Origin: a virus | IMG/VR virus record: IMGVR_UViG_3300030061_003600 | DNA length: 64,000 nt | Strand: one strand, 5' to 3' | In this document: piece after piece, positions 37,180 through 61,108 of the stretch | Layout of the letters: the number at the start of each line of letters is the position of its first letter | How positions within the stretch are numbered: the first letter of the stretch is position 1 | Notes under the pieces: generated by a model | Told to the model about the DNA's origin: nothing | What the model saw: only the letters and a program-made list of their open reading frames with translations | Database searches by the model: none | Made by a program: the position numbers and the translations under genes

Positions 37180-37899
37180 ATGGAAAATTTAAACCGTTAT
37201 TTCTCTGATGCAGAAGAAAACATCTCAAATGAGTATATGTCAGCAGATGGCGTAAACGAATGGGATGATGCTTTTGACTTTGGTGGTTCCGAAGAAGAGT
37301 ACCTAAATGCAGTAGGGTCTGCTGATGCAAGTTCATCACAACCTTACATCATTTCACTTTATAACTCTACGGCAGCAGATATTGCTTCTGTTGAGGTAGG
37401 AGGTGCGTATAACAACATTACAACGACTGTTGGCGATAAAGCCAATACTGCGGGTGTTGCATATACAATGGGTATTTCAGGTGTAACTTATCTTGAATTT
37501 TTGTGGCAAAGTAGTTCAAAACCATTCGTGGTTGGACTTACTTACTTACAATCTGATGGAGGTTCATCTCAAGTTCTTGAAACTATCGTAGTGAAAGTAG
37601 TGGACTCTAATGGTAACCAACAACAAAAAACTCTTGTTCCAACAATTGACCCTTACCAAAACCAAACAGACATTACTGTATTAAAGCATACCTACAAGTG
37701 GGATGGCTTTACTACATTAACAGTTAATAATGTGACTGCAAAGAAAACTTTAAAAGTTTACTTGTTCCCATCTGAAACTGTTTCTCAAGGTCGTGCTCTA
37801 ACAGGCAATTCAATTGCTCGTGGTTATGGTAATCCAAATGTTGTAAGACAAGATAAAATTGTTTTAGGTCAAGGAGTTGCTCGTGCATTAAGAGGTTAG
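37180..37899 (+). CDS. major capsid protein candidate (single jelly-roll-sized beta domain after an acidic leader)
   Basis: About eight beta-strand segments in ~140 aa; high-expression codon bias (CGT, GGT, TAC, AAC, ATC) unlike neighbours; own leader and terminator; near the ATPase. Confidence 0.6.
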   Translation: MENLNRYFSDAEENISNEYMSADGVNEWDDAFDFGGSEEEYLNAVGSADASSSQPYIISLYNSTAADIASVEVGGAYNNITTTVGDKANTAGVAYTMGISGVTYLEFLWQSSSKPFVVGLTYLQSDGGSSQVLETIVVKVVDSNGNQQQKTLVPTIDPYQNQTDITVLKHTYKWDGFTTLTVNNVTAKKTLKVYLFPSETVSQGRALTGNSIARGYGNPNVVRQDKIVLGQGVARALRG

Positions 37900-37924
37900 T
37901 ATTAACCTTATGAGATTAGATATT

Positions 37925-37977
37925 AAATGGGGCAGAGGCATATGCAAAGGCATTTGTTTCAAGCCCCATTTTTTTTA
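37925..37977 (+). terminator. intrinsic terminator after the capsid gene
   Basis: AAATGGGGC ... GCCCCATTT stem followed by a T-run. Confidence 0.8.
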
Positions 37978-38000
37978 CGAAAAGATTAAAAAAAGATAGA

Positions 38001-38519
38001 ATGAGTTTATACGAATATATTGCATTAAACAATTCCCACGGGGCAAATGACCTGTTGGGAAATTATGGTTTTAAAGCCACAGATAGTATAGATAAGTTAA
38101 TAGATAGATTAAAAATGATTGTGAGGAAATATAAAAAGATTGCCTTGCAAGATATTAGTGAGATACATCCTGATAAGGATTTACTCTCTTCATTTACTAT
38201 CTCTAATAGTTCGGATAAAGAATTTGCTTATGCAACCGGTAGAACACCCGGATTTGAAGAACCAATTGTAGAGGTAGCACCTGAAGAACCAACCTTTGAG
38301 CCACCCCCAAAAGACCCTTTCGTTGCTACGGAAGTAATAGCGGAAATAAAAGATGTAAAAAAACAAATTCTGAAAGATAAAGTCCGAAGAGAAATAAATG
38401 AAAGGAGAAGAAGAAGGGAAAGAAACAGAAGAACTAATCATATGGGTTCAATGCAAAATTCTCCAATGCTTCTTTTAGCAGTAGGTTTCGCAGTAGGATA
38501 TATTATAGCAAAAAAATAA
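38001..38519 (+). CDS. putative virion membrane protein
   Basis: C-terminal TM; FAYATG motif; Arg-rich stretch. Confidence 0.7.
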   Translation: MSLYEYIALNNSHGANDLLGNYGFKATDSIDKLIDRLKMIVRKYKKIALQDISEIHPDKDLLSSFTISNSSDKEFAYATGRTPGFEEPIVEVAPEEPTFEPPPKDPFVATEVIAEIKDVKKQILKDKVRREINERRRRRERNRRTNHMGSMQNSPMLLLAVGFAVGYIIAKK

Positions 38520-38520
38520 T

Positions 38521-39330
38521 ATGAGATATGAATATCACAACTTTTCAGAGAATTTTAAAGCAATACAAAATACAAAAGATATGGCTATAACAAGAGAATT
38601 GATGCTATCAGAGGTTGCGAAAGTGATAGATGGTAGACCTGCATTAGTAAGAAAGGCACTTATAAAGTGTGGAGTAAGATTATCAGCAAGACCGGGTAAA
38701 AGAGAATTAGTAAGTGCAGTAGCAGTAAATTTAGTAAGTAAGTGTGTGAGAGTGGCGATAATGAAATTAGTTTTAGCCAATCAACTTCCTTTTATTGATG
38801 GTGCAGACAGAGCATATGGAGATTTAGGAGAAAAAGTAGGAGATTTTGACACAGATTTAAGTAGAGATGAATTTATGAACCACCCGGGTTTCATTAGCGG
38901 ATTATTTGGTGGTGGTGGTGGAGGTTCTTCTACAACTACAACTACTCCTACAAATACTACATCTAATGTAACAAACAGTAGTAGTAAGGGTATTTCAGGA
39001 GGAGAAGCATTAGGAGCCGGAGTTCAAGTTTTATCTACTATTGCAGGAATTTGGCAAGGTAATAAAGGATATAAAGAAATGGGTAAGCAAAGAGCACACG
39101 AAATGGAACTTGCTCAAATGAATAGAGATTTAATGTTAGAGCAAATGAATTTGTCGGCTAATCAACCGGTTTCAGGTCCTACACAGGCAGGAATGGGCGG
39201 AGGAGCAAATATGACAACTTTTGTGTTGTTAGGTATTGGTGTAGTAGCCATTATAGGATTTGGTATATATAGTGCAATGAAAGGTAGAGGAAGAGTAAAA
39301 TCTTCTGCACCGGTAACTGCTGCTAATTAG
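38521..39330 (+). CDS. putative virion membrane protein with NHPGF motif
   Basis: FMNHPGFISGLFGGG, S/T-rich linker, amphipathic helix, C-terminal TM. Confidence 0.7.
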   Translation: MRYEYHNFSENFKAIQNTKDMAITRELMLSEVAKVIDGRPALVRKALIKCGVRLSARPGKRELVSAVAVNLVSKCVRVAIMKLVLANQLPFIDGADRAYGDLGEKVGDFDTDLSRDEFMNHPGFISGLFGGGGGGSSTTTTTPTNTTSNVTNSSSKGISGGEALGAGVQVLSTIAGIWQGNKGYKEMGKQRAHEMELAQMNRDLMLEQMNLSANQPVSGPTQAGMGGGANMTTFVLLGIGVVAIIGFGIYSAMKGRGRVKSSAPVTAAN

Positions 39331-39341
39331 TTCTTTGACAT

Positions 39342-39635
39342 ATGTTTGATGAAGTAGATGAAATATCTTTTGATAGCAATAAGCAAGTTTCTAACGGAAT
39401 GTTAATGCCGGAAGGAACTCAAGACAATGTAAATAACATCGTTAATGATGGAAAAGCAGCATTGGTTAAAGAAAGTACGAAAGAAATGTTGAAAGGAGCA
39501 GTTTTAGGAAGTGTTTTAGGAGCAATCCTTTCATTATGGAGAAAAAAAAGTGTTTGGATGGGAGTTTTAGCAGGAGGTTTAGCCGGAGGTTACCTTGCTA
39601 AAGAAAGCATTATAGATTTTAAAAAAGAAGAATAA
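39342..39635 (+). CDS. small glycine-zipper membrane protein
   Basis: GAVLGSVLGAILS, GVLAGGLAGG. Confidence 0.7.
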   Translation: MFDEVDEISFDSNKQVSNGMLMPEGTQDNVNNIVNDGKAALVKESTKEMLKGAVLGSVLGAILSLWRKKSVWMGVLAGGLAGGYLAKESIIDFKKEE

Positions 39636-39772
39636 TGGCTTTAGAACCTTACGAACAAGAAGAGATGGAAATGGATGTAATACAGAATGGAATATCCGTA
39701 AAGTATTTAGCCATTGCCGGTGGAGTGTTAGTAGCATTAATAGTAGGAATAAATTGGTTAATTAGAAGATGA
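39635..39772 (+). CDS. small TM protein (45 aa, not in ORF track)
   Basis: Overlaps the upstream stop and downstream ATG; YLAIAGGVLVALIVGINWLIRR. Confidence 0.7.
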   Translation: MALEPYEQEEMEMDVIQNGISVKYLAIAGGVLVALIVGINWLIRR

Positions 39773-40599
39773 ATATATTATTTAAAACAAAGCAAAAGTC
39801 ATTAACAATAATGATAGAGGTCGTTACAGATGGTCCTCAAAAAATGCAAATTGTTGTAAAGGATATAAATAAGCCAAATACGGATTATACAAACCGATAT
39901 GCAACCATAAATGGAACACAGAGGTTTTTTGTAAGAATGCCAATGTCACCATATGAAGCATTAATTAGCGTGTATAATAAAGCAAATGGCAATTTAAAAC
40001 AAGGTCAAGACCCAACTTTTAAAGTAGTAAAAGTGGATGCAAGACCTTTAGAAAGAAAAATGGATTGTGTTGATTGGAGTAATCCAAAAATTAGGGATTT
40101 TGTGAATTTTGCACAACAATTCTCTGACAACGCAGGTATATTAAGTGCAGGAAAGTTTCCTAATGGGAGCACATATATCTCTGATGAGGGTAATTTTAGA
40201 ATAGATTACTTTGATGATATAAGAACAAAAAGAGGTTTGGTAATACAAACCCCTGCAAGAATTAGTCAGTCCAAAGGAATTATACAAGTGAGCAAAGCAC
40301 ATTATAAAAAGTTCACAGTTCCAATGAGAATGGCAATTCTATTACACGAATTTTCTCATTTTTATTTAAATGAGAATATGGAAGATGAAACAGAAGCAGA
40401 TTTGAATGGATTATTAATTTATTTGGCTCTTGGTTATCCAAGGATAGAGGCATATCAAAGTTTCCTTACAACATTTAAGGACACACCGACACCTCAAAAC
40501 AAAGAAAGGTTTGACATTTTAAATCAGTTTATAACAAATTTTGAAAGAAATAAATTTTGTACTCAATATAACACACCCAATTTGAATGCAAGTAGATAA
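39769..40599 (+). CDS. HExxH zinc metalloprotease (gluzincin-type), candidate maturation protease
   Basis: AILLHEFSHFYLN followed by ETEAD; N-terminal beta domain; no TM. Confidence 0.7.
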   Translation: MNILFKTKQKSLTIMIEVVTDGPQKMQIVVKDINKPNTDYTNRYATINGTQRFFVRMPMSPYEALISVYNKANGNLKQGQDPTFKVVKVDARPLERKMDCVDWSNPKIRDFVNFAQQFSDNAGILSAGKFPNGSTYISDEGNFRIDYFDDIRTKRGLVIQTPARISQSKGIIQVSKAHYKKFTVPMRMAILLHEFSHFYLNENMEDETEADLNGLLIYLALGYPRIEAYQSFLTTFKDTPTPQNKERFDILNQFITNFERNKFCTQYNTPNLNASR

Positions 40600-40618
40600 T
40601 AATAAATAAAAAAAAGTT

Positions 40619-41326
40619 ATGGCAGGAACAATAATAGGAAGATTACCCAATGGGGGAACAATTTGCGATTGTGGTGGAGATACACCATATATTAATTGTG
40701 GAAGCGGGTGTCAATGTTGTAATGTTGCACCTAATACGGGTACAACAGATTATATAAGCAAAACAAGAGGAGTTCCTTCTGAAGGAAATTCAAATCGTGG
40801 AGCAAGAGGTCAAGAATTAGCATTTAGAAATGCTTCAGGAAAATATAGAAATGATATGAGCAGTTCTTCAGATTATAGGTCAGACAATGACCCATTTTGG
40901 ATGACATATGCTCGTAATGGACAGAGAGTTAGTTATCCTGTTCACCCACCATTATATATGGCAAGAAATAATGATTTCAGACCTGATTGGATGAAAAACA
41001 ACCAAAGAGATATGACACCAATTCACCCACCGTTATATCAATCACGAAGAGGAGCAACTCCTATTCACCCACCATTATATCAGTCAAGAAAAGGAGCAAC
41101 TCCTATTCACCCACCGTTATATCAATCAAGAAGAGGTATGACACCAATTCACCCACCATTATATCAATCACGAAGAAGCACAGGATTTAGAAGATTTTCG
41201 GGTGATGAAAATGGTACGATGATGACAATGAGTGTAGGAAAATTACTAATGGGATATTTAGCAATAGGTTTAAGTGCTTTTGTAGTTGGTTATGCAATTA
41301 AAAAAGGATGCGATACCGCAAAATAA
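40619..41326 (+). CDS. putative virion membrane protein with Cys-rich N-terminus and 14-aa repeats
   Basis: CDCGG..CGSGCQCC; FRNASG; TPIHPPLYQSR[RK]G x4; C-terminal TM. Confidence 0.7.
   Translation: MAGTIIGRLPNGGTICDCGGDTPYINCGSGCQCCNVAPNTGTTDYISKTRGVPSEGNSNRGARGQELAFRNASGKYRNDMSSSSDYRSDNDPFWMTYARNGQRVSYPVHPPLYMARNNDFRPDWMKNNQRDMTPIHPPLYQSRRGATPIHPPLYQSRKGATPIHPPLYQSRRGMTPIHPPLYQSRRSTGFRRFSGDENGTMMTMSVGKLLMGYLAIGLSAFVVGYAIKKGCDTAK
41012..41179 (+). repeat. 42-bp tandem repeat x4 encoding xTPIHPPLYQSR[RK][GS]
   Basis: Read directly; mostly synonymous variation. Confidence 0.9.
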
Positions 41327-41333
41327 AAAGATT

Positions 41334-41489: not shown

Positions 41490-41496
41490 TTAAAAT

Positions 41497-42204
41497 ATGA
41501 AAGAAATGACAGACAAATTTTTAAATTTTGATGGAATGCCATCAGATGTGCCAAATGATATGCCTTGGAGTGATACAAAATGGTCAAATCAAGCAGGTCA
41601 ATTAACAGAGCAGGAGGCGGTAAATGTTTCTACTATATACGGAACTGCATTAAATGCTTCCGGTCAGGAAAGTATTACATTAGACCATCATATGAATATG
41701 AGTCCTAATATGGTCTTAACAGATGATGACAATAGCAAAATGCCTGATAGTGATAATTGGAGCAATCATCCGGGATTTTTAGGTATTACTTGGAGTTCAA
41801 AGAAAGCGGAATCAGAAAGATACCAAAAAGAACTTAACAAAGTAAATAGTCAATATCCTAATACAGGAAGTTGTGCAATTCTAACTGATAGTTTAGATAG
41901 GATAGATGCTGACCTTGCAAACTTAAATGCCAATAAAGATGGCGGAGGAAGAGGTGCTAAAAGAGTAAATGCAAGAGCAAGAAAAGCAAGAAATGCTCGT
42001 AGAAAAGGTATCGCAAGTGGTGCGGCTGCGGCTTGTGCAGGAGAAGAAGCGGCTTGGCAAAGACAACAGGTAGAGTTACCACAGTTAATGTTACAAGCGG
42101 CACCTCAAGCAAGACAAGCAGGAATGAGCACAACTAATCTTATTCTTGGAGTTTTAGTTCTTGGAGGTATTGGTTTTGCTCTTTATAAAATGGGAAAAAG
42201 ATAA
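41497..42204 (+). CDS. putative virion membrane protein with several motif copies
   Basis: FLNFDG, WSNQAG, LNASG, WSNHPGF; Cys-flanked helical hairpin; C-terminal TM. Confidence 0.7.
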   Translation: MKEMTDKFLNFDGMPSDVPNDMPWSDTKWSNQAGQLTEQEAVNVSTIYGTALNASGQESITLDHHMNMSPNMVLTDDDNSKMPDSDNWSNHPGFLGITWSSKKAESERYQKELNKVNSQYPNTGSCAILTDSLDRIDADLANLNANKDGGGRGAKRVNARARKARNARRKGIASGAAAACAGEEAAWQRQQVELPQLMLQAAPQARQAGMSTTNLILGVLVLGGIGFALYKMGKR

Positions 42205-42207
42205 GAT

Positions 42208-42720
42208 ATGAGTAAAGTAATGAAATGTAATGGTCAGTATATAAAAGACCACGCTTGTTATCCTTTATGTCCATCACCTGATGGTTGGGGATGTGATACT
42301 TCTTCAATTTTTGGAGGAGGAGATGGCATAGGTGGACCAACTGATAACTATACAGTAACAACAGGTAATGCCGTATCAGGAAATACTTCAACAAGAACGA
42401 ATGTAAGCCCGATAGACCCATATCAAAGTATAACACCTGATATGTTAAATGCAAGTGGTGATTTATGGTTTGGGGTAAACGGAGAACAACAAAATAATCC
42501 TCTTTGGTTTAATCAATCAGGGGATGCGGTAATAAAAGTAGATGGCGATACTTATGCTTATGAGCCGGTTTTGACTTGGGATAGAGGTTGTGATGCTATG
42601 GATGATAGTGGAGATGGTATTATGACTAACAAAGATTGTAGTCATAGGTCAAAATTTGGGGGTGTTCCGGGATTAAGATTAGGAGCATATAGGTTTAAGA
42701 ATGGTGTAATGGACAATTAA
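42208..42720 (+). CDS. Cys-containing putative virion protein
   Basis: KCNGQYIKDHACYPLCP; MLNASG, WFNQSG. Confidence 0.65.
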   Translation: MSKVMKCNGQYIKDHACYPLCPSPDGWGCDTSSIFGGGDGIGGPTDNYTVTTGNAVSGNTSTRTNVSPIDPYQSITPDMLNASGDLWFGVNGEQQNNPLWFNQSGDAVIKVDGDTYAYEPVLTWDRGCDAMDDSGDGIMTNKDCSHRSKFGGVPGLRLGAYRFKNGVMDN

Positions 42721-43654: not shown

Positions 43655-44251
43655 ATGTTTATAGATAGCGAACAAAATTCAAGTTGGAGTAATATGACTC
43701 AAAATGATGATGGTTATATGAACCATCCCGGTTTCCTTGGAGGAACTTGGTGGAAAGATACTTTTAATCCTAAAAAAGCAGAGGAAGAAAGGTATCAAGA
43801 TGAAAAAGCCAAGCAAAAATCAAATTGTGATTATGCAGCAGGAGATAGTTGCGAGGACTTATATGATTGTAAAGAATACTTTCAAGGTCTTTACAATGCT
43901 AATACAGGAAACACAAGAGTTCCTAAAAGAATAAGAAAAGCATCTTCTCATCATATGGGAAAAGTAAATGAGTATTTAGCAGCAAGAGATTGTGATGTTC
44001 AAACAAGTGTTTCTTCATCAGTAGATACTTCATATCAAGCAGTTGATGACAAAAACGAAGAGTTAGCGGCTATTAGAGAACAACTTACTCAAATTAGTCA
44101 AGATTCTGCTACTGCTCAAGAGAGCACTTTTAAACAAGCACAAGATATGATTAATGCAGAAGCGGCTAAATCAGAACAAGAAAAAAAGAATTTAATGATA
44201 GGAGGAGGGGCAGTAGTTGCCATTCTATTATTAGTAGTATTAATGAAGTAA
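43655..44251 (+). CDS. coiled-coil C-terminal TM protein with NHPGF motif
   Basis: YMNHPGFLGGTWW; RDC; terminal TM. Confidence 0.7.
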   Translation: MFIDSEQNSSWSNMTQNDDGYMNHPGFLGGTWWKDTFNPKKAEEERYQDEKAKQKSNCDYAAGDSCEDLYDCKEYFQGLYNANTGNTRVPKRIRKASSHHMGKVNEYLAARDCDVQTSVSSSVDTSYQAVDDKNEELAAIREQLTQISQDSATAQESTFKQAQDMINAEAAKSEQEKKNLMIGGGAVVAILLLVVLMK

Positions 44252-44281: not shown

Positions 44282-44863
44282 ATGGCATTTTTAGGAAACA
44301 TTTTTAATTCCGGCAACTTTGGAAATAATCAAGGGTCAGGAGCAGCAACATCAGGTGCAGGAGGTGTATTAGGAGGTATCGCAGGAGCAGGTACAGGTAT
44401 TATACCGGGAACAGTAGCAACATCAATCCCAAGACCGGGTAGACCGATAAAACCGGGTGGTTTTATTGGGGGACAATGGTGGAATAGACCGGGTAGACCG
44501 GGTAGACCGGTTAGACCGGGTAGACCGGGTAGACCTATTTTTGATACACCATCAAGATACACGGTTCCTTACCATACACATACTATGGAGCACAATGGAT
44601 GGACAAAAGAAACAGGAGGTCCAACTAATATGAGAATGACTAAACCAAGACCACCATTTTTCGGAGGAGGATTTATAGGCAGACCAAGACCTATTCCACA
44701 GGTTCCTATTCAACCAAGACCGGTAACCACTATTAAACCGGGAATGAATATACCGGCAGTACCACAGGCACCAATGATGAGAAATGCAAGTGGATGTGGA
44801 GCAGGATATTCTAATGCAAGTGGAGATGAGTGTGGATTATGGATGTGTGCATCAGGACACTAA
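44282..44863 (+). CDS. Gly/Pro/Arg-rich low-complexity protein
   Basis: RPG repeats; MRNASG, YSNASG, MCASG at C-terminus. Confidence 0.65.
   Translation: MAFLGNIFNSGNFGNNQGSGAATSGAGGVLGGIAGAGTGIIPGTVATSIPRPGRPIKPGGFIGGQWWNRPGRPGRPVRPGRPGRPIFDTPSRYTVPYHTHTMEHNGWTKETGGPTNMRMTKPRPPFFGGGFIGRPRPIPQVPIQPRPVTTIKPGMNIPAVPQAPMMRNASGCGAGYSNASGDECGLWMCASGH
44486..44530 (+). repeat. 9-bp tandem repeat AGACCGGGT x5 (one variant)
   Basis: Read directly. Confidence 0.9.
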
Positions 44864-44904: not shown

Positions 44905-45261
44905 ATGACTGCAAATCAAGTTTACAAATTATCAGGTTCAGATACACCATTCAGCGAGTGGGTAGGAGAACAAAAAATTAAATACGGAGAAAAATTCGTA
45001 GAAAATGAAGAGTTTATCAATATGAATGGAGAGGGCTTTGTACAAGAAACTCCACCAACTGCTGCTGATGTAGTAATGCAAAATTCTGATGAGAATATAC
45101 AATTCCCAAGAGGTGCTGCAATAGGTGGTAGCGTAACTTTAGGAGGTTCAGAATTAGAAGGAAATGTTAGTGTTTCTAACTTCCCAACTAAAAAAGTTCT
45201 TTTTGCGGCAGGAGTAATAGTAGTAGGGCTTTGGGCATATAATAAATATATAAAGAAGTAG
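44905..45261 (+). CDS. C-terminal TM protein
   Basis: FINMNG; VLFAAGVIVVGLWAY. Confidence 0.7.
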   Translation: MTANQVYKLSGSDTPFSEWVGEQKIKYGEKFVENEEFINMNGEGFVQETPPTAADVVMQNSDENIQFPRGAAIGGSVTLGGSELEGNVSVSNFPTKKVLFAAGVIVVGLWAYNKYIKK

Positions 45262-48107: not shown

Positions 48108-49139
48108 ATGGAAAACCAAGGAATGTCAAAAGGAGTAAAAATAGCATTATGGTCTGTTAGTGGATTATTATTAGCGACAGGTTTATTTTTTGGAATCCGT
48201 GCAATAGTTAAGGCGGGAGGTAAGAAAAATAATAAATTAAGTGATGCCGAAAGAAGAGAGTTAGAACTTTTAAAGCAGAAAGAAAAAGATGGTACACTAA
48301 CAAATGAAGAACAAATTATTTTAGATGATTTAGAAAAAGACACCCCTATATACACTCCTAATCCGGGTGAAACAACTACTCCGGGAGGTTCATCTTTTCC
48401 AATTAAGGTAGGAGATGGTAATGATGATATAGCAAGAATTCAGTTGGCAATGAACGGAAAGCATTCCGGCAAAGTAGTTCCGGGATGGTGTTGTACTCCG
48501 GGTAATGGATTCACAAATACTGATATAGCAGTAGATGGGTTGTTAGGACCTGAAACTGCGGAAGTATTAGGGGCATATGAAGATTTTTGTAAGTGTGGAG
48601 GTTTTGCGTGGAGTTATTGTCAATGTAATGATATTAGTATAAGCGAAAAAAGATACCAAGCACTTATACAAGGAGTTGATACAAGCGATGCTGCACTTGC
48701 TGCTGCGGGATATACAGTTCAAAATCCTTCAACAAGTTCATTTGCAGGATTTAATGGATATTCAAACGCAAAAGGAAGGGTTGATGAAAGACCTAATTCT
48801 TATTATAGAGCAAGAAAAGGAATGCAAGATTGTCCTCCGGGACAAGTATATGAAGATGGAATGTGTAAACCAATTGGAGCACCTTCAGCAAGATTTTCAG
48901 GATATTCCAATTTTAATTTACCTGAATATGGAGCAAAATACGATAGTCCATTAGGTAATTTTTATAAAAGTCAATTTGCATTTACTAATGATTACCCTAA
49001 TCAAAGTCCAATGCAACATAGTTATGGAATGGGTAAGGGATTTGGATTTGCAGGGGCTCCTCACTTTCCTTTTGAAGGAAAAACGGGTTCTGAAAGTGAA
49101 ATACAAACGGTACAAGAATTTATAGATGATGTGCCATAA
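48108..49139 (+). CDS. N-terminal TM protein with peptidoglycan-binding domain and aromatic/Gly-rich tail
   Basis: FPIKVGDGNDDIARIQLAM...VDGLLGPETAEVL; YSNAKG; DERPNSYYR block shared with 49826. Confidence 0.65.
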   Translation: MENQGMSKGVKIALWSVSGLLLATGLFFGIRAIVKAGGKKNNKLSDAERRELELLKQKEKDGTLTNEEQIILDDLEKDTPIYTPNPGETTTPGGSSFPIKVGDGNDDIARIQLAMNGKHSGKVVPGWCCTPGNGFTNTDIAVDGLLGPETAEVLGAYEDFCKCGGFAWSYCQCNDISISEKRYQALIQGVDTSDAALAAAGYTVQNPSTSSFAGFNGYSNAKGRVDERPNSYYRARKGMQDCPPGQVYEDGMCKPIGAPSARFSGYSNFNLPEYGAKYDSPLGNFYKSQFAFTNDYPNQSPMQHSYGMGKGFGFAGAPHFPFEGKTGSESEIQTVQEFIDDVP

Positions 49140-49252: not shown

Positions 49253-49813
49253 ATGGGATTTTATAGAGATACAGAAAATTACGCTTGGATTAATCAAGCA
49301 GGACCGGGAGTTGGAGCAGACCCGGCAGGAGGGGCAGTTGTAGGACCACCTGCACCACCACCTATTGGAGGAGGAGCAGCAGGAGCATTTCCTTCGTGTG
49401 CTTCTACAATGAACCAATGTCCGTGTAGTTACGGAGGGTGTATGGATAATTCTTATATGGAGTATGATGCAAATGCAACTTGTGATAATGGAAGTTGTGC
49501 AACACCTATTGTTGCAGGATGTATGACTCCTTCAGCAATAAACTATAATCCGGCTGCAAATGTGGATGATGGTAGTTGTATAGGTGCCATTTCAGGATGT
49601 ACTGACCCTAATGCTACAAACTATAATGCTCAAGCAAATACAGATTGTAGTGGTAATATAGTTCAAGGCGGAGGTGGAGCAGCCCAACCACAACCGGGAG
49701 GAAATATAGGTTTTAATGGATATTCTAATGCATCAGGTTGTGGAAACACCTATTCAAACTTCAATCAACAAGGTTTTGGAGGATATAATGACCAATTGTG
49801 GTTTAACGACTAA
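49253..49813 (+). CDS. Cys-rich protein with three GC[TM]D repeats
   Basis: WINQAG; GCMD..NGSC, GCMT..DDGSC, GCTDPNATNY. Confidence 0.7.
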   Translation: MGFYRDTENYAWINQAGPGVGADPAGGAVVGPPAPPPIGGGAAGAFPSCASTMNQCPCSYGGCMDNSYMEYDANATCDNGSCATPIVAGCMTPSAINYNPAANVDDGSCIGAISGCTDPNATNYNAQANTDCSGNIVQGGGGAAQPQPGGNIGFNGYSNASGCGNTYSNFNQQGFGGYNDQLWFND

Positions 49814-49825
49814 AAAATAAAAAAT

Positions 49826-50440
49826 ATGAATAATTATTATAATATGGGGGGCTGCGGAAACTATTCTAATGCAGTAGGTAGAAATGCAATGATTAATCCA
49901 ATGCCACCTATGCCACCGGCAATGTCAATGGATGAAAGACCAAATTCTTATTATAGAGGAAGAGGAGGTAGACCAAGTGTTTCTCGCCCCGGTCAAGACA
50001 GAAGAAAATGTTCGGTAACCTGTGGTTATGGTCCAAGAGCAGGAAGAGTTTGTAGCGGTGCTTGTAGTTTAAATTTAACAGAAGGAATGTGTTGTTCAGG
50101 TCCGGGAGTATATATGGAAGAAGGAAGTCGCAATAGTAGAAACTTTATGGGATTTGATGGTTCAAATAGGATGGGATATGATAATGATGGAATGGCATCG
50201 GACATTTGGTTTAACCAAAAAGGAAGAGGAAATTCAAGAAGTTGGTCAGGCGGATGTAGAACAAGTGGAGATTGTGTAAATGACAGACCGGCAGATTGTG
50301 CACCTTGTTGTGAATCAATGTGTGTTTCCGACTCAACAGGTTATGGAACTTGTGAATACGAGGGTGTTCCTTGTGGAAGTCAAGTTTATCAATCAAGTAA
50401 AAGTAGAGGTTTTTCAGGAAACGGCTTTACATCTTATTAA
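49826..50440 (+). CDS. Cys-rich putative virion protein, mosaic paralogue of 58454
   Basis: Shared FDGSNRMG.DNDGMASDIWFN and terminal FSGNGFTSY. Confidence 0.7.
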   Translation: MNNYYNMGGCGNYSNAVGRNAMINPMPPMPPAMSMDERPNSYYRGRGGRPSVSRPGQDRRKCSVTCGYGPRAGRVCSGACSLNLTEGMCCSGPGVYMEEGSRNSRNFMGFDGSNRMGYDNDGMASDIWFNQKGRGNSRSWSGGCRTSGDCVNDRPADCAPCCESMCVSDSTGYGTCEYEGVPCGSQVYQSSKSRGFSGNGFTSY

Positions 50441-53277: not shown

Positions 53278-54291
53278 ATGGAAAATAAATTATGGTTTAA
53301 TCAGGCAGGAGAATCTTACAATGGAATACCGTGTGATGACATATATGGAGGATGTCCTGTAAGTCAAGCGGGAACACCTATTATAGATACTAATCCTCCT
53401 GTACCACTTGCTATTCCGGCACCTAATGCTACTGATGCTCAAATTGCAAATGACCCGGGATATTTACAGGTATTGGCAGATGGTTCAGTAATAGATGCTA
53501 ATGGAAATATAGTTTCCGAGGGAACAGATGATGGTTTAGCACCGGTACAACCTATGTTACAAGCGGGACAAAGAGTTAGTAAGGTATTTTCAGCATCAGG
53601 TCAAATAAGTGCTAATTTAATGATAGGAACGGTTACGGGAATAATACAAAAAACATTACCGGCTAAATACGAAATTATTTGGGATAATGGAACGAGTTCT
53701 TTTGATTTAGCAAGTGATGTAACTCCTATGCCAAATCAACCTGTGCAACCAATAACAGAACCTATTTATTCAATAGGTCAAGAAATAGTATATAATTCTT
53801 ACCATAATTGTCCTGTGGGTGGAGGTCCAATTGCTCCTAATGACCCTTGTGTAGTAAGCGGGAGAGGTGTTATAGTGGGAATGGATGAAACAAGCCCGGT
53901 GCCAAGATACCAAGTTCAAATGGTGAATGGCGATATAAAATTCTTAATGGAAGGAGAAATGCAACCATTTCAACCTACCGGTGAAGAATTATCATATGAA
54001 GAAAAATTTTGCCAAGATAAAGTGAATGGTATGTCTTGGGCAGATGTAGACCCAAATCCGGATAAAGAAAATTATTATGCAACTTGTGTACAAGAACAAT
54101 TGGCTCTTGGAGATGGAACAGTATTTACTCCTCCATCGCCTGTTGTGGTTGAGCCACCATCAGGAGCAGACAGTTGTGGAAAAGATAAATATGCTTTACC
54201 TATACAGATAGGAGAAGAAAAGTGTATAGATAAAACTTTAGCATTAGTGTTAGGTGCACTTGCTATATATTATATAATGACAAAAAAGTAA
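53278..54291 (+). CDS. C-terminal TM protein with two SH3/Tudor-like barrels
   Basis: LWFNQAG; LQAGQRV..GTVTG..YEIIWDNG; YSIGQEIV..GVIVG..YQVQMVNG. Confidence 0.6.
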   Translation: MENKLWFNQAGESYNGIPCDDIYGGCPVSQAGTPIIDTNPPVPLAIPAPNATDAQIANDPGYLQVLADGSVIDANGNIVSEGTDDGLAPVQPMLQAGQRVSKVFSASGQISANLMIGTVTGIIQKTLPAKYEIIWDNGTSSFDLASDVTPMPNQPVQPITEPIYSIGQEIVYNSYHNCPVGGGPIAPNDPCVVSGRGVIVGMDETSPVPRYQVQMVNGDIKFLMEGEMQPFQPTGEELSYEEKFCQDKVNGMSWADVDPNPDKENYYATCVQEQLALGDGTVFTPPSPVVVEPPSGADSCGKDKYALPIQIGEEKCIDKTLALVLGALAIYYIMTKK

Positions 54292-55089
54292 TTGATTATG
54301 GAAAACAACGATAAATACTTAAATTTCTTTGGGGATTCTCAAAATTATAAACTCCATAACCCACTACCTAATCCTTATGGATTAAGAGGTAATCCGGATT
54401 TGAATGCAAATTCTGCTGACCACGGAGATGGATTAAATGGAACTCCCGATTATAGAAGTTTTACGGGAGAAGTTCAAGATGATGCTTGGAGTAATCACCC
54501 GGGATTTATAGCCGGTTTATTTGGAGGAGGAAATAATAATGATGAGCCAAATACTTTGAGTGATGGTCAAGTAGATGCAAATAACGATGGATTGCCTGAC
54601 TATTTAGAAGTGGGACCGCAACCTGACCCTAATGCAGCCCAAGAGAGTGGGGGCGGAGGATTTATTTCTGCTTGGTTTGATGGCAAAAGAACTTATTATT
54701 CTTGTCAAAACGGACAAGTTATAAGCCAACAATTTGAGAGAGGTTCTCAACCTTCGGGATGGGGAACAAACCGAAGTAATGCTTGTTTAAATCCTGACCA
54801 AATAGCACAAAAACAAGCAAATACTTGGAGCACTATTGGAAATATATTTAAAAGTATAAATACAGGTTTTAAAACGGGTTTAAATGCAGGAAGTCCTAAT
54901 ACAGGAGGCGGAACAGGCGGAGGAGTTATAGACCCGGGAACAACAACAACTACAACTACTCAAGCAGGAGTAGGAGGTGATACTTCCAAAATTATTGGAT
55001 GGGTATTAGTTGCAGGAGTAGTATTTGGATTGGGATATATGGCGATTAAAGCGGCAGGAGCACCAAGACCTGATTTTTATAACGATTAA
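54292..55089 (+). CDS. C-terminal TM protein with NHPGF motif
   Basis: WSNHPGFIAGLFGGG; amphipathic WSTIGNIFKSI; terminal TM; start may be 54298. Confidence 0.7.
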   Translation: MIMENNDKYLNFFGDSQNYKLHNPLPNPYGLRGNPDLNANSADHGDGLNGTPDYRSFTGEVQDDAWSNHPGFIAGLFGGGNNNDEPNTLSDGQVDANNDGLPDYLEVGPQPDPNAAQESGGGGFISAWFDGKRTYYSCQNGQVISQQFERGSQPSGWGTNRSNACLNPDQIAQKQANTWSTIGNIFKSINTGFKTGLNAGSPNTGGGTGGGVIDPGTTTTTTTQAGVGGDTSKIIGWVLVAGVVFGLGYMAIKAAGAPRPDFYND

Positions 55090-56358: not shown

Positions 56359-56361
56359 TTT

Positions 56362-56619: not shown

Positions 56620-56646
56620 TAATTTAAATAATAAAAAAGAAGAATT

Positions 56647-56802: not shown

Positions 56803-56805
56803 TTA

Positions 56806-57060
56806 ATGAAGAAAGCACCAACATTATATATCATCGGGGCTTTTGCGGCAGGATTTATCCTTTATGGGATATACAAGAGCCGAAAGCAAGAGGAAAGCAC
56901 AAATACACCTTTACCTTCACAAGAAGGGACTACTCCATTAGAGAATAGTCAGGCAGTAGAGCCAACTTCTACCACACCTGTTTCCGGGACATCGCAAACA
57001 ATCCTTGATGGTTTTAATGAAAATGATGCACAACTTTTAAAAGAAGAACTTAAAAATTAG
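56806..57060 (+). CDS. N-terminal TM protein with S/T/P linker
   Basis: LYIIGAFAAGFILYGIY. Confidence 0.7.
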   Translation: MKKAPTLYIIGAFAAGFILYGIYKSRKQEESTNTPLPSQEGTTPLENSQAVEPTSTTPVSGTSQTILDGFNENDAQLLKEELKN

Positions 57061-57065
57061 ATAAA

Positions 57066-58436
57066 ATGGATAAAAATTTATTGGGACTAATAGGTGTCGG
57101 TGTGGCTGCCTATTTTATTCTTAACAAGAAGAAGGATGAGGAGGTTGCTATAACCACCAATGAACCTACCACACCCGTAGACCCAATTATTTCTGATGTA
57201 ACACCCGTTACACCAATAGTAGACCCATATATAGACCCTAACACAGGAGTTGTAACACCCGTTACACCAATAGTAGACCCATATATAGACCCTAACACAG
57301 GAGTTATTGTAGACCCTATTGTACCACCTGTAACAGATGTAATAGGATGTATGGACCCTAACTCAATTACTTATAACCCATTAGCAACTATGGAACCTGT
57401 TTCAGGATTAGATGCAAATGGTAATCCGGTATGTCAGTATGGCGACCCGATTGACCCAACTCCGGTTATAACACCGGGATGTATGGACCCATTAGCAACT
57501 AACTATGACCCATTAGCAACAATAGACAATGGGACTTGTGTATTACCTGTAACTCCGGTTGCAGGATGTACTGATGCTACTGCAACTAACTATGACCCAT
57601 TAGCCACATCTGATGATGGTAGTTGTGCTTATGCTCCTGCTCCAATAGCAGGATGTATGAACCCGTTGTCAGATAATTATAACCCATTAGCAACAATTGA
57701 TGGGGAACCTTGTATAGGTCCATTTAATCCAATGCCATTAATTCCGGGATGTACAGATGCAACTGCAAACAATTATAATCCAAGTGCCGAAGAAGATGAT
57801 GGCTCGTGTACTTATGATATAGGCGGGTGTATTGACCCAACTGCAAATAATTATAATGCAGGTGCGAATATAGATGATGGAAGTTGTACATATGATATAG
57901 GCGGGTGTATTGACCCAACTGCTACTAATTATAATATAAATGCCAATATAGATGATGGCTCTTGTGATTACACACCGGCTGCCGTTATGGGATGCGTAGA
58001 CCCTACGGCTAACAACTATAATCCTTCCGCAAATGCAGATGATGGTAGTTGTACTTATGATATAGGAGGATGTACTGATGCTACGGCAGCCAACTACAAT
58101 CCAAGTGCGAATGTTAATGATGGAAGTTGTGCTTATACTGTAAATTGTTATCCTCAAGGATGTTTAAGTCCGGGTGTACCTGAACCTATGCAATCATATT
58201 CAGTAATTGGTTCGGCAACTTGCCCACAATACACACAACAAACACCGGCTGACTGCGGTGCATTACCTACAACAGGATGTACTGACCCAAATGCTATTAA
58301 CTATGATGCAGGAGCAACTACACCTTGTGCAGGTCAAGGCGGAGGCGGAGGTAACGCAGGTGGAGGAGGTCTAAATCCAACACCAAATGTCGGAAGAAAC
58401 TTTAGTGGAGGACAATTTATGTTTGGAGATTATTAA
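57066..58436 (+). CDS. N-terminal TM protein with ten GC[TMIV][DN]..A.NY...A..DDGSC repeats
   Basis: Repeats counted in the translation; ends FSGGQFMFGDY like 50851. Confidence 0.8.
   Translation: MDKNLLGLIGVGVAAYFILNKKKDEEVAITTNEPTTPVDPIISDVTPVTPIVDPYIDPNTGVVTPVTPIVDPYIDPNTGVIVDPIVPPVTDVIGCMDPNSITYNPLATMEPVSGLDANGNPVCQYGDPIDPTPVITPGCMDPLATNYDPLATIDNGTCVLPVTPVAGCTDATATNYDPLATSDDGSCAYAPAPIAGCMNPLSDNYNPLATIDGEPCIGPFNPMPLIPGCTDATANNYNPSAEEDDGSCTYDIGGCIDPTANNYNAGANIDDGSCTYDIGGCIDPTATNYNINANIDDGSCDYTPAAVMGCVDPTANNYNPSANADDGSCTYDIGGCTDATAANYNPSANVNDGSCAYTVNCYPQGCLSPGVPEPMQSYSVIGSATCPQYTQQTPADCGALPTTGCTDPNAINYDAGATTPCAGQGGGGGNAGGGGLNPTPNVGRNFSGGQFMFGDY
57197..57304 (+). repeat. 54-bp tandem duplication encoding VTPVTPIVDPYIDPNTGV x2
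   Basis: Read directly; copies identical. Confidence 0.9.
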
Positions 58437-58453
58437 TATATAAAAAGAATAAA

Positions 58454-59263
58454 ATGGGATTTTTAGAAAATAATGAAACAATGGCTTGGTTAAATCAAGC
58501 AGGGGGCGGATGTCCTTGTCAGTATGCAGGTTGTACAGACCCGGCAGCAAATAATTATGATGCAAGTGCATCTGTTGATGATGGAAGTTGTACTTATCCA
58601 CAAATATCGTGTTACAAATGTGTTGGAAGCAATTTAGTAGGAAATAACTTTAACGGACCAAGTTGTCCGGGAGGATGGAGTGCAACTCCACCAAATTGTA
58701 CACCTATAATTAGAAATTTTAGTGGAGATTACTATAATATACAAGGAAATGATGGAAAACCTTATGATATAAGAAATTGTCCTTGTGGAACTTGTCCCGG
58801 GGCAAATAGTTGTGTTCCGTGTGACCATAATCCTTGTGGAGAAGAAGCAATTATGCAAGACCGACCAAATAGAGGTATAATGCCTATTTCTCTACCACGA
58901 ATGGATGGAAGAAAAGTACAAGCGGGAGGAAGATTATCTCAAAGAATTTCAAAAGGAGATACTGACCCTACTGATGATATGGGTTTTAGAAGATTTGATG
59001 GTTCTAACAGAATGGGCTTTGATAATGATGGAATGGCATCGGATATTTGGTTTAACGCAAGAGGTAGGAAAGGAAGAAGAGGTAGAGGACAATCAAGGTT
59101 AGATTCAGGAGGAAATTGTTATTATACCTGTCCTAATGGCGGAACTGTGACTTTACCTTGTGATGAGCCGGTAGTAAATATAACTGCTGCTTGTGGTACA
59201 CAATTAGCACCTGCTGATGATAGAATGAATAGATTTTCAGGAAACGGCTTTACATCATATTAA
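58454..59263 (+). CDS. Cys-rich mosaic putative virion protein
   Basis: N-terminus like 49253, C-terminal blocks like 49826. Confidence 0.7.
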   Translation: MGFLENNETMAWLNQAGGGCPCQYAGCTDPAANNYDASASVDDGSCTYPQISCYKCVGSNLVGNNFNGPSCPGGWSATPPNCTPIIRNFSGDYYNIQGNDGKPYDIRNCPCGTCPGANSCVPCDHNPCGEEAIMQDRPNRGIMPISLPRMDGRKVQAGGRLSQRISKGDTDPTDDMGFRRFDGSNRMGFDNDGMASDIWFNARGRKGRRGRGQSRLDSGGNCYYTCPNGGTVTLPCDEPVVNITAACGTQLAPADDRMNRFSGNGFTSY

Positions 59264-59265
59264 TT

Positions 59266-59811
59266 ATGGGAAAAGGACTTAAAATAACATTAATAACAGT
59301 AGGTCTGCTTGGAACAGGAGTAGGTTTATATTTCTTATTACGACCTCGTGGAGGAAAGAATGGAAAAAATAAATCTACTGATGATAGTATCTTTGATAAA
59401 GTAATAAGAAACACTTTTTATGGTGATGACTCTTTTCCTTTAAAGAAAGGAAGTGGAGGCGACAAAGTGAAAGCACTACAAAGATTTTTGAACGATGCGA
59501 ACTCTAATAATAATTTAGATGTAGATGGAAAGTTTGGTCCTTTAACTGAAGCGGCATTAAAAAGTGAGCAAGACCCATTTGAGCAATTTAAAGTTTCTTA
59601 TCCTAATGCAGTTTATGGTCAAGTTTCGCAAGGTTATTATAATGACTTTGTAAAAGAATATGAAGGTACAACGACTACCATACCAACAACTCCAAACCCT
59701 TCTAATTTTTTAGATAGGGATAATGATGGTGTTTCGGATTATATAGATGGAGATGGTGGAGCAGGAACAAATTTTACAGGCGGAATATATAATAATGCTT
59801 GTGGGTGTTAA
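59266..59811 (+). CDS. N-terminal TM protein with peptidoglycan-binding domain (PG_binding_1-like)
   Basis: FPLKKGSGGDKVKALQRFLN...LDVDGKFGPLTEAALK. Confidence 0.8.
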   Translation: MGKGLKITLITVGLLGTGVGLYFLLRPRGGKNGKNKSTDDSIFDKVIRNTFYGDDSFPLKKGSGGDKVKALQRFLNDANSNNNLDVDGKFGPLTEAALKSEQDPFEQFKVSYPNAVYGQVSQGYYNDFVKEYEGTTTTIPTTPNPSNFLDRDNDGVSDYIDGDGGAGTNFTGGIYNNACGC

Positions 59812-59846
59812 TAATAAATAATATAAATTGAATAAATAATATAGTT

Positions 59847-59978
59847 ATGGCAAAACAAAAAATGAATATCGGAGGATTTGCAGTTTCACTTGTATTAACA
59901 GGTGCTCTGTTTTTTGCACTTGGTTATGGGTGGCAAAAAGGTAGAAATATAGCAGATAGAAGAAGAGAAGAAGCATAA
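59847..59978 (+). CDS. small TM protein (43 aa, not in ORF track)
   Basis: FAVSLVLTGALFFALGYGWQKG, a tail similar to 41334 and 40619. Confidence 0.7.
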   Translation: MAKQKMNIGGFAVSLVLTGALFFALGYGWQKGRNIADRRREEA

Positions 59979-59998
59979 ATTAATATATAGTATATACT

Positions 59999-60478
59999 AT
60001 GGGAATAGATTCAGGTTTTAATAGTTTTGGGTTTGTAGATGACCGAGAAGAGGAAGAAAGATGGGGGCTTTTAGATAAGAAATTATCTGAAGCGAACTCT
60101 CCTACTCCTCCTAAAGAAGAAGATACAATTCATACTATTGATGGAAAAATGGAAGTTGGTGATGATGGCACTTCTGATTGGGTTGAAGATATGCAGAAAA
60201 GTAGTTTAAAAACCTATAAAAGAAAAAGTGCTAAAAACAGAAATTTCTTTCAAAGAAATAAGAGAGAGATATTTGATGCGGTAATTATATTAGGCATCAT
60301 ATATGTAGGTTATAAATTATTCTTTGAGAAAGATGAAGATGGCGATTTTGACCACGGGGGAGAAGTAGATTATACTCCTACTCCTCAATCCGTACCGGCA
60401 CCTGAACCTGCGGCTCCTATAAATCCTGCACCTCCAAGACCGGAGATGCCGGAAGCAACTTTTAACCCTGAAGCATAA
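59999..60478 (+). CDS. membrane protein with one FDHGG motif and Pro-rich tail
   Basis: TM AVIILGIIYVGYKLFF, then FDHGGEV. Confidence 0.7.
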   Translation: MGIDSGFNSFGFVDDREEEERWGLLDKKLSEANSPTPPKEEDTIHTIDGKMEVGDDGTSDWVEDMQKSSLKTYKRKSAKNRNFFQRNKREIFDAVIILGIIYVGYKLFFEKDEDGDFDHGGEVDYTPTPQSVPAPEPAAPINPAPPRPEMPEATFNPEA

Positions 60479-60588
60479 TGAGAGAAGATAATAGAGGGGA
60501 TAAAAAAAAGAGGAAGCCAAGAATAGTGTTTTGGACAATTTTAGCAGTAGGACTATGGTATATGAACGAAAAAGTATTTAAAAAATAA
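60478..60588 (+). CDS. small TM protein (36 aa, not in ORF track)
   Basis: Overlaps the upstream stop; IVFWTILAVGLWYM. Confidence 0.6.
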   Translation: MREDNRGDKKKRKPRIVFWTILAVGLWYMNEKVFKK

Positions 60589-60592
60589 AATT

Positions 60593-61108
60593 ATGAAAGA
60601 ATTATGGTTTGGTCAAGCGGGGGTTACTTTATCTCAACACGGAGATGGAGATGATAGATTTCCGGGATGGCAAGAAAGTTTTGGAGCCGGTACATATTTA
60701 GGAAATGATGATTTCCCTAACGATGATGCATCGCATATAGAAATAGATAGCGGATATACTGCAACATTAAGAGAACACGGTCCATCTGATGACAGATACC
60801 CGGGTAATGAATATACTTACACAGGACCTACTACTATGAACTTAAATCATTTTAATGATGAATTAAGCGAACTTGAGGTAGATGAGATTGTGGAGCCAAC
60901 ACCTGACCCAATACCTGACCCAATACCTGACCCAACAATAGAGGATGAAATAATAGATGCAGATATTCCCGTAGATGTGCCTGATATGCCTGATACAGAT
61001 ACAGGAGATGTTGATGAAGCAGGTTTAGCAGGAGGAGGTAATACAATGTTATATGTTGGAATAGGAGCAGTTGCATTAGTGGCAATCGTTTTAATGATGA
61101 AAAAATAA
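60593..61108 (+). CDS. beta/gamma-crystallin-like domain protein with C-terminal TM
   Basis: VTLSQH...NDDASHIEIDSGYTATLREH...FNDELSELEV two-motif pattern; PDPI repeat linker. Confidence 0.6.
   Translation: MKELWFGQAGVTLSQHGDGDDRFPGWQESFGAGTYLGNDDFPNDDASHIEIDSGYTATLREHGPSDDRYPGNEYTYTGPTTMNLNHFNDELSELEVDEIVEPTPDPIPDPIPDPTIEDEIIDADIPVDVPDMPDTDTGDVDEAGLAGGGNTMLYVGIGAVALVAIVLMMKK

Follow-up and report, generated by a model that had tools for sequence, protein, structure and literature searches.

In a 64,000-nucleotide stretch of viral DNA (IMG/VR virus record IMGVR_UViG_3300030061_003600; the whole stretch is called the window here), we found that about 18 of the proteins encoded by a module at positions 37180-61108 share a six-residue motif, aromatic-x-[N/S]-[A/Q/H/F]-x-G. 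As judged from the sequences, this motif is a functional signal under selection at the protein level, which confirms the observation made in a first-pass annotation of the window. The annotation had read it as an operon-wide maturation cleavage code or as a capsid-docking motif. What stands of this interpretation is a functional motif which is selected at the protein level, confined to the morphogenesis module, conserved across the lineage and accompanied in the module by a zinc-protease-like protein; most likely the motif marks virion proteins to be processed or docked by this protein as particles assemble, and the choice between cleavage and docking is one of probabilities, which are weighed below. 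Genes are named here by the position at which they start.

Enrichment and conservation of the motif

All of the motif instances reported by the first-pass annotation were located in the translated open reading frames (ORFs) of the genes to which they had been assigned. Our tally came to 30 sites in 18 proteins, including the variant WFGQAG and one site outside the module, WFNQVG (positions in Table 1). Where about 20 carriers had been claimed, our recount gave 17-18 of the 40 ORFs in the module. Expected counts were taken from 2000 within-protein shuffles of the module (7712 aa) and of the rest of the window (12745 aa). The strict pattern [FYW]xN[AQH]xG was observed 19 times in the module against 0.59 ± 0.75 expected and a shuffle maximum of 4, and twice in the remainder of the window, where 0.41 were expected. 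A broader pattern gave 28 sites in the module against 2.4 expected, with no enrichment in the rest of the window. The suspected enrichment in structural versus other genes therefore holds, with an approximately 30-fold excess in the module over composition-preserving shuffles. Seven control patterns (the reversed motif, Asp in place of Asn, Ala or Ser in place of Gly, Ile, Leu or Val in place of the aromatic residue, and two of three shifted registers) were found 0-2 times each in the module, against about 0.5 expected. The exception among the controls was the third shifted register, [FYW]N[AQH]xG, with 5 sites against 0.57 expected (shuffle maximum 4). The RxFSG/RxFDG variants, which the annotation had also pointed out, were searched as R.?F[SD]G and gave 8 sites in the module, where 0.24 were expected; outside it the window has none.

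When sites which aligned in BLAST high-scoring segment pairs were linked, 27 sites fell into 21 independent groups, which rules out paralogy as the sole cause of the excess. Codons for Gly, Asn, Ala and Gln within the motif follow background usage. This variation among synonymous codons rules out a DNA-level repeat or recombination site and indicates that selection acts on the protein and not on a DNA repeat.

The acidic leader ascribed to the motif was recovered: the net charge of the 12 upstream residues averaged −1.5, compared with −0.23 ± 0.32 at random positions, and this value was reached in 0 of 2000 random trials in the same proteins. Sites also cluster towards N-termini, with 9 of 26 beginning in the first 25 residues (2.9 ± 1.6 expected). 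The placement of the motifs in disordered segments is borne out for the capsid leader by the predicted local distance difference test (pLDDT) of an AlphaFold2 (AF2) model; for the other proteins, composition and indel-rich alignments point the same way. A different glycine motif, of the type [YFM][AE/x]KGG, recurs every 50-130 residues in giant or anchor-bearing proteins of the window at 19465-26289 and 61113-64000 (for example 61113 and 62204).

We gathered 106 related loci (given L-numbers), most of them through the HExxH protein encoded by gene 39769, whose alignment served for scanning genome contigs where the capsid alignment was too variable. A capsid-family gene was found in 99 of the 106 loci and an HExxH-protein gene in 103, figures which are partly built in by this way of fetching the loci. 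The motif was replicated in 85 loci whose HExxH proteins differ from one another and share 30-85% identity with that of the window. From the capsid gene onward these loci contain 424 broad motif sites against 70 expected, compared with 16 against 12 in the genes which lie upstream of it. Of the 85 loci, 80 had three times the expected count or more, and five control patterns stayed at 0.7-1.8 fold. In an unbiased scan of all three-position patterns over the same loci, conservation between orthologues (HExxH) and Gly/Ser/Thr repeats prevailed to such an extent that the motif could not be ranked.

Leave-one-out enrichment was 7.4-fold for F and 5.6-fold for Y at position 1, 6.7-fold for N at position 3 (S 1.5-fold, G 1.7-fold), 4.6-fold for A at position 4, 6.1-fold for D at position 5 and 7.6-fold for G at position 6, with F enriched 4.5-fold directly after the Gly. 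As each position is enriched separately, the lineage consensus is an acidic stretch followed by [FY]-x-N-A-D-G-[FD]. Position 5 is Asp at 89 of 291 sites, Ser at 40 and Thr at 28, and Asn is swapped for Ser or Gly at about a quarter of sites. Across these sequences, the WFNQAG and NHPG-F forms are specialities of the subclade to which the window belongs, as are the YSNAxG types.

In alignments of orthologues the register of the motif is held while its flanks carry indels, and N-terminal extensions of 4, 8, 11, 73 and 155 residues all stop at it. The longest of these, a strongly basic extension of 50851 (50851-51333), ends at YYSASG and has no counterpart in the orthologues of loci L006 and L008, where the aligned position reads WFNQAG or FNQRG and the protein begins only 4 residues ahead of it. 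For 49253 and its orthologues the extensions measure 11, 73 and 8 residues, and each of them finishes at the motif. Orthologues of 38001 have FVNATG, FSYATG and YLNITG in register, and among the 85 homologues of this family the conserved N-terminal part ends with the motif (Gly 0.9), values being about 0 from there to the transmembrane (TM) segment. In 38521 the motif columns form a local conservation peak (107 homologues). The NHPG site is retained in 38521, 41497 (present in four orthologues), 43655 (FLNHPG and FQNHPG in register) and 54298 and in their orthologues. WFNQ[ST]G of 42208 is held in both orthologues found (L006 and L008), and orthologues of 44905 have FMNMAG, FLNMAG and FINHAG, while a remote relative in L088 has YRNAVG. 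In loci whose HExxH protein is 30% identical to that of the window, a single 70-residue acidic leader can hold up to four copies of the motif.

The putative capsid protein and the HExxH protein

Abundance, conservation and position mark 37180 as the putative major capsid protein. Its AF2 model (pLDDT 83) begins with a helix (residues 4-18) and continues with a leader, in which pLDDT is < 50 at residues 21-47, before a single jelly roll sets in at about residue 52. Structural matches were weak and generic (Z 5-7), and included the PR772 penton, the capsid proteins of FLiP and phiCjT23, and plant and insect virus coats. The comparison with PRD1/PM2-type phages drawn in the first-pass annotation did not survive, as the model and the fold matches give a single jelly roll and not a double one. 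We found no match to 37180 among 50,697 GenBank phage records, and none in IMG/VR when searching with the single capsid sequence.

The capsid family contains 414 representatives after clustering at 50% identity, and capsid leaders hold the strict motif at about 20 times the density of the jelly-roll body. The first copy (YMSADG in the window) is held in 6 of 6 relatives compared and the second (YLNAVG) in the four closest. Among 108 capsid homologues both copies are kept, with Gly columns conserved at 0.8 and 0.7 in an otherwise variable acidic leader. A seemingly leaderless capsid protein in L088 was an artefact of ATG-only ORF calling, a leader with FFNADG lying in frame upstream (L088:7400-7566); as there is no ATG upstream of this leader, the L088 capsid gene must use a non-ATG start codon.

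About a dozen relatives have a second capsid-family jelly-roll gene without an acidic motif leader, mostly small (143-170 aa) and mostly about 6-9 kb downstream of the HExxH gene (L039:18908-19354, L045:19330-19761, L055:18945-19406, L063:16132-16575 and others). Adjacent capsid paralogues, one leader-bearing and one leaderless, are found at L009:9253-9918 and L009:10255-10959; this locus breaks off 3.9 kb beyond the first of its capsid-family genes, and its second paralogue bears a leader. L070 also has two adjacent capsid copies, with a leader on both. This suggests a particle made of two single-jelly-roll proteins. In the window, 37180 is the only clear capsid-family match. The 42208 protein has a marginal match to the capsid-family profile (E 5.7e-4) and an IDPYQ segment in common with 37180, and may be a diverged jelly-roll relative.

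On its structural model, the 39769 protein looks like a zinc protease with an M48-like gluzincin domain. The AF2 model (pLDDT 89) consists of an N-terminal beta-sandwich (residues 1-97) and a helical C-terminal domain, which superposes with moderate scores on M48 peptidases: BepA (Z 8.2, root-mean-square deviation 4.1, 121 aligned residues), 3c37 (Z 6.3) and Ste24 (Z 6.1). Foldseek returned jannalysin (probability 0.89), ImmA/IrrE and “peptidase MA-like” entries, and the language-model neighbours, which serve as leads only, included M48 and DUF4344 clusters at 0.79-0.87. Across 90 sequences, some of them as little as 30% identical, H193, E194, H197, E207 and D211 do not vary, and neither does the strand T161-R164. 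The protein has neither a membrane segment nor a signal peptide. It has 1664 homologues, on contigs which reach 177 kb and in many cases stem from Tara and lake metagenomes; there was no relative among the 50,697 GenBank phage records and no PDB sequence match at E ≤ 10 in a profile search.

We also predicted one complex, in which the HExxH protein (alignment plus zinc ion) was paired with capsid residues 1-60. Of the binding between motif and protease which the annotation had envisaged, the contact itself was predicted, with interface scores (ipSAE) of 0.52, 0.58 and 0.52 vs 0.02 for the best control, and its location was not the catalytic cleft, the contacts lying outside it. It should be noted that in calibration the ipSAE mark was met by 58 of 80 solved complexes and 2 of 110 mismatches, and that passes ≤ 0.60 are rare among true pairs and rated “weak support”. 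The predicted contacts involve capsid residues 4-28, which are the helix and the first motif YMSADG, and on 39769 the sandwich (13-56 and 92-95) and the last two helices (224-252). Seven Arg or Lys residues on this surface (R43, R52, R56, R92, R225, K237 and K245) would complement the acidic leader. The model thus gives a modest hint that the capsid leader docks on 39769 at an exosite.

Candidate roles for the motif

Our preferred reading, to which we give a probability of roughly 0.4, is that the motif is a common signal by which virion proteins are recognised and processed during maturation. The short linear motif would mark virion components for maturation; precursors would carry it either within a flexible, acidic leader or where a folded domain passes into a linker, in every case cytoplasmic with respect to the membrane anchors, and there the soluble, conserved HExxH protein 39769 would recognise it. 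The cut in the leader or linker would then fall at or beside the motif, following its Gly or preceding its aromatic residue. Such cutting would strip the acidic leader from the capsid protein, trim short N-terminal leaders off the spike-like Cys-rich proteins and, in the NHPG-F class, expose a hydrophobic, Gly-rich new N-terminus.

The variable leaders ending at the motif resemble propeptides, and the N-terminal clustering and the sites at domain borders fit cleavage, as does the invariant catalytic signature of the candidate enzyme encoded in the module. Thermolysin-like gluzincins have a P1' preference which would suit a hydrophobic residue (Phe) after the motif Gly, itself a small residue. 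The several copies per leader also count for cleavage, because propeptides of phage SPN3US have the same arrangement. In the C-terminally anchored proteins the motif-bearing N-terminal parts are predicted to face the cytoplasm. Where the TM segment is N-terminal, the tail ahead of it is very short and has fewer basic residues than the part which follows, so that by the positive-inside rule the large domains of these proteins should also be cytoplasmic. With this predicted topology, a soluble cytoplasmic reader could reach every motif site.

Several points weigh against a processing signal. The activity of 39769, its role as the reader of the motif and the cutting of any bond are all three things which we infer. 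The 39769 protein has no Pfam M48 match (no Pfam family at E ≤ 0.1) and no PHROG match. In the predicted complex H193, E194, H197 and E207 lie outside the interface, and interface conservation was 0.583 vs 0.577 ± 0.045 for random residue sets. The families 38001, 38521 and 44905 have a conserved domain upstream of the motif, so that cleavage would sever this domain from its anchor, which may happen but is unlike classic leader removal, and some motif sites lie only 6-30 residues from the C-terminus. The KGG-type motif described above may also be a competing, or additional, substrate class of 39769.

The boldest form of the processing reading is speculative: a globally distributed lineage of large phages (contigs reaching about 177 kb, one jelly roll in the capsid protein, probably a membrane, binned mostly with Bacteroidota) would run its whole virion maturation on one aromatic-x-N-x-x-G code, with a capsid-associated M48-like metalloprotease as its reader. 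If this were true, cutting would strip the capsid leader, free domains from their anchors and give the NHPG-F proteins new N-termini resembling fusion peptides, and the maturation system would have no counterpart among known membrane-containing phages.

It is possible, if doubtful, that the motif is never cut and acts as a multivalent handle for assembly or docking, which would gather membrane and spike proteins and the N-terminal arm of the capsid protein on one receptor surface, either the non-catalytic face of 39769 or the capsid lattice. Tandem copies 10-40 residues apart in acidic low-complexity leaders are typical of multivalent linear motifs, some of the motifs close the conserved N-terminal domains of tail-anchored proteins while others are near C-termini, and the modelled capsid helix and first motif sit on a basic, non-catalytic surface of 39769. 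However, this putative receptor surface is no more conserved than average and the score of the complex falls in the weakly supporting range. Docking would also leave unexplained both the variable N-terminal extensions which stop exactly at the motif and the invariant catalytic HExxH...E...D signature of the partner.

Two further explanations are improbable. In the first, the motif would be a site of Asn modification, such as atypical N-glycosylation by phage glycosyltransferases. Position 3 is enriched above all in Asn, sugar genes directly precede the capsid gene both in the window and in relatives, and there is a precedent in chlorovirus Vp54, which has N-glycans on Asn outside the standard sequon (PMC5408694). 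On the other hand, the swaps of Asn for Ser or Gly would remove the modified residue at about a quarter of sites, the sites lie in disordered leaders and at extreme N-termini and not in folded surface loops, and the required aromatic residue (−2) and Gly (+3) have no known parallel in glycosylation. We identified no oligosaccharyltransferase-like or NGT-like enzyme.

In the second, to which we give an equally small chance, the sites would have no common partner and would reflect a recurrent local structure (an Asx-turn and Gly ending helices) or the shuffling of modules between structural genes. The structural proteins are indeed rich in N, G, S and aromatic residues, and several sites stand within longer shared modules, such as FDGSNR...WFNQxG in 49826, 58454 and relatives. 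Against this, the 30-fold excess remains after composition-keeping shuffles, the controls are flat in the window save for the one shifted register and run at 0.7-1.8 fold over the 85 loci, and 21 independent groups are left after linking paralogues. Conservation in register across divergent genomes also argues for a common selective agent.

Asparagine peptide lyases act in the maturation of nodaviruses, tetraviruses, reovirus mu1 and picornavirus VP0, at N-A, N-F, N-P and N-S sites, and often free membrane-active peptides. By analogy, the motif could break itself at the N-A/Q/H bond by Asn cyclisation on assembly, which would account for the dominance of Asn with A, Q, H or F next to it. In NHPG-F proteins such a break would act much like the release of a membrane-active peptide. 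We consider this very improbable: such cleavage needs a specific folded catalytic environment, whereas here there are more than 20 unrelated and mostly disordered contexts, and at many positions shared by orthologues the Asn has given way to Ser or Gly, as in YMSADG, the capsid site which is best conserved. Three other candidates were rejected: an EF-hand or DxDxDG calcium loop (position 1 is F or Y and not Asp, and position 5 in the window is A, S, P, V or K), a canonical N-x-S/T sequon (Asp dominates where Ser or Thr is needed) and a sortase-type sorting signal (the motif is 60-150 residues from the TM segment).

Motif-bearing genes, genomic setting and known systems

The genes which carry the motif, together with that of the HExxH protein, are listed in Table 1.

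Table 1. Genes of the window which carry the motif or a variant of it, and the gene of the candidate reader.
Feature	Positions	Strand	Motif sites and remarks
Putative major capsid protein, 239 aa	37180..37899	+	YMSADG 37234-37251, YLNAVG 37300-37317
Tail-anchored membrane protein	38001..38519	+	Degenerate FAYATG, then RTP, closes conserved N-terminal domain
Tail-anchored membrane protein	38521..39330	+	FMNHPG 38872-38889, then Gly-rich hydrophobic stretch
HExxH protein, 276 aa; candidate enzyme or receptor for the motif	39769..40599	+	Beta-sandwich and M48-like domain
Tail-anchored protein	40619..41326	+	FRNASG 40823-40840; RRFSG variant 41189-41203
Tail-anchored protein	41497..42204	+	FLNFDG 41518-41535, WSNQAG 41581-41598, WSNHPG 41758-41775
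Cys-containing soluble protein, 170 aa	42208..42720	+	MLNASG 42442-42459, WFNQSG 42505-42522
Tail-anchored protein	43655..44251	+	YMNHPG 43715-43732
Pro/Gly-rich protein	44282..44863	+	MRNASG 44777-44794, YSNASG 44807-44824, near C-terminus
Small tail-anchored protein	44905..45261	+	FINMNG 45013-45030, terminates conserved N-terminal domain
Protein with N-terminal TM segment	48108..49139	+	YSNAKG 48759-48776, ARFSG 48891-48902
Two Cys-rich proteins (49253, 49826)	49253..50440	+	N-terminal WINQAG, YYNMGG, YSNAVG
49253/49826 pair, further sites	49253..50440	+	Internal WFNQKG, C-terminal YSNASG, GFSG/GFDG variants
Cys-rich protein, 804 aa	50851..53265	+	YLNQSG 51079-51096, YYSASG 51316-51333, RFSG in C-terminal tail
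Two tail-anchored proteins	53278..55089	+	53278: WFNQAG at residue 6; 54298: YLNFFG, YRSFTG, WSNHPG
Three proteins	57066..59811	+	57066: RNFSG tail; 58454: WLNQAG, WFNARG, three RxFSG/RxFDG sites
59266, third protein of 57066..59811		+	PG_binding_1 domain; YNNACG at C-terminus
Tail-anchored acidic protein	60593..61108	+	Variant WFGQAG at residue 5 (60605-60622)
Outlier outside the module, 146 aa	8803..9243	+	5-residue leader, then WFNQVG 8818-8835

Some of these proteins share longer elements. In the NHPG class, F or W directly follows the motif and is in turn followed by a hydrophobic, Gly-rich or amphipathic segment (38872-38920, 41758-41800, 43715-43760 and 54487-54530), and two families continue with K-K-A-E-x-E-R-Y; if an NHPG motif were cut after its Gly, the new N-terminus would look like a fusion peptide. 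A module of about 25 residues, F[DS]GSNR-x3-D-x-D-G-x2-S-[DN]-[IL]-WFNQ-x-G, which joins the RxFDG variant, a DxDxDG-like loop and the main motif, recurs in unrelated proteins (50150-50224 and 58988-59065 in the window, L006:17563-18381, and the orthologues of 42208). Four Cys-rich proteins have paired conserved C-terminal tails, two with RFSG/RNFSG and then ...FMFGDY and two with RFSG/GFSG and then NGFTSY (53221-53265, 58395-58436, 59228-59263 and 50405-50440); these tails form a second shared signal, which is C-terminal and has an aromatic last residue. Tandem repeats of about 35 residues, C-[TM]-D-P-x-A-x-N-Y-[ND]-x3-A-x3-D-D-G-S-C, were found at 57066-58436 (about ten copies), 49253-49813 and 58454-59263, and matched no Pfam family besides a weak Fn1_2 match.

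All genes of the window lie on the + strand, with about 32% G+C. The 40 ORFs of the module (≥ 40 residues) encode mostly small proteins with one C- or N-terminal membrane segment, together with several Cys-rich soluble proteins. The structural ORFs had no Pfam or PHROG family besides the PG_binding_1 domain of 59266 and a sub-threshold LEA_2-like sandwich in 55093 (23.3 bits, below the 25.4 cut-off). Genes upstream of the module encode methyltransferase- and glycosyltransferase-like proteins, a PAP2 protein and a 2451-residue SNF2-like helicase, and the sugar genes immediately upstream of the capsid gene, here and in relatives, comprise glycosyltransferase, methyltransferase, epimerase and sulfotransferase genes. 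Gene 33598 encodes a putative FtsK/HerA-type ATPase with a weak match to DUF87 (E 5e-4); with this ATPase and the weakly matched single jelly roll, the lineage may belong with Varidnaviria-like phages, which have jelly-roll capsids and internal membranes.

The host is bacterial, as relatives carry Amidase_3, RusA and a faint SLT match. There are 16 related contigs in species-representative metagenome-assembled genomes (MAGs), 9 of which are titled Bacteroidota or Ignavibacteria (Sediminibacterium, Flavobacteriales, Lishizhenia, Paludibacter, two Saprospiraceae, two Bacteroidota/Bacteroidetes and Ignavibacteria), with binning errors likely among the rest. These MAG contigs (L012-L027) are assigned to many phyla, chiefly Bacteroidota, and some are 100-132 kb long and apparently wholly viral. 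Going by the MAG titles, Flavobacteriales, Chitinophagales or Saprospiraceae are the probable hosts. The moraphages (PMC12619734) are tailed jumbo phages and not the lineage of the window.

The prohead proteases of T4 (gp21) and of phiKZ and SPN3US (gp175/gp245) recognise one short consensus which is common to many head proteins (PMC10052503, PMC5694885), and the substrates of SPN3US gp245 have propeptides of 20-254 residues with several cleavage motifs (PMC10052503). The window resembles these systems in having one consensus, short to long N-terminal leaders which may be propeptides, multiple copies and a candidate protease gene in the morphogenesis module. The T4, phiKZ and SPN3US enzymes, however, are serine proteases of the herpesvirus assemblin type, their motifs end in Glu and the phages are tailed with an HK97 fold, whereas the window has a candidate HExxH metalloprotease, an aromatic-x-N-x-x-G motif, a single jelly roll and a cleavage which we infer.

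Maturation at Gly motifs is carried out by AVP in adenovirus, pS273R in African swine fever virus and I7L in poxviruses, which also require the G1 metalloprotease. As in the window, many virion precursors of these viruses share a Gly-containing consensus, and they have jelly-roll capsids or internal membranes. In contrast, their enzymes are cysteine proteases cutting GG-X, G-G or AG-X, with no counterpart to the aromatic and Asn positions of our motif, and no cysteine protease of this type was recognised in the window.

The 39769 protein resembles M48 peptidases and minigluzincins (BepA, HtpX and Ste24; jannalysin) in its HExxH with downstream Glu and Asp and in its fold. It differs from M48 in having no family sequence match, no membrane segments, a shorter spacing to the third ligand and a fused N-terminal beta-sandwich. 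The chloroviruses (PMC5408694) also have virus-encoded sugar genes beside structural genes, and Asn outside N-x-S/T. Their glycosylated Asn residues, however, are on folded capsid surfaces of a eukaryotic virus, where a shared aromatic...Gly frame is not known.

We know of no maturation protease or shared processing signal in membrane-containing phages with jelly-roll capsids; the relatives which have such maturation systems are adenovirus and large eukaryotic viruses, by way of cysteine proteases. The six-residue signal described here links about 18 otherwise unannotatable virion proteins, a capsid family and a protease-like family. It offers a marker for virion components in a dark-matter aquatic lineage and predicts mature N-termini precisely, and with 39769 it would make a simple two-protein system for studying particle maturation. 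A shared maturation signal as a concept is already known from T4, phiKZ/SPN3US, adenovirus, African swine fever virus and poxviruses. What is new is the setting, a large uncultured and unannotated lineage with a single-jelly-roll capsid and apparently rich in membrane, together with the motif itself and a candidate M48-like metalloprotease fused to a beta-sandwich.

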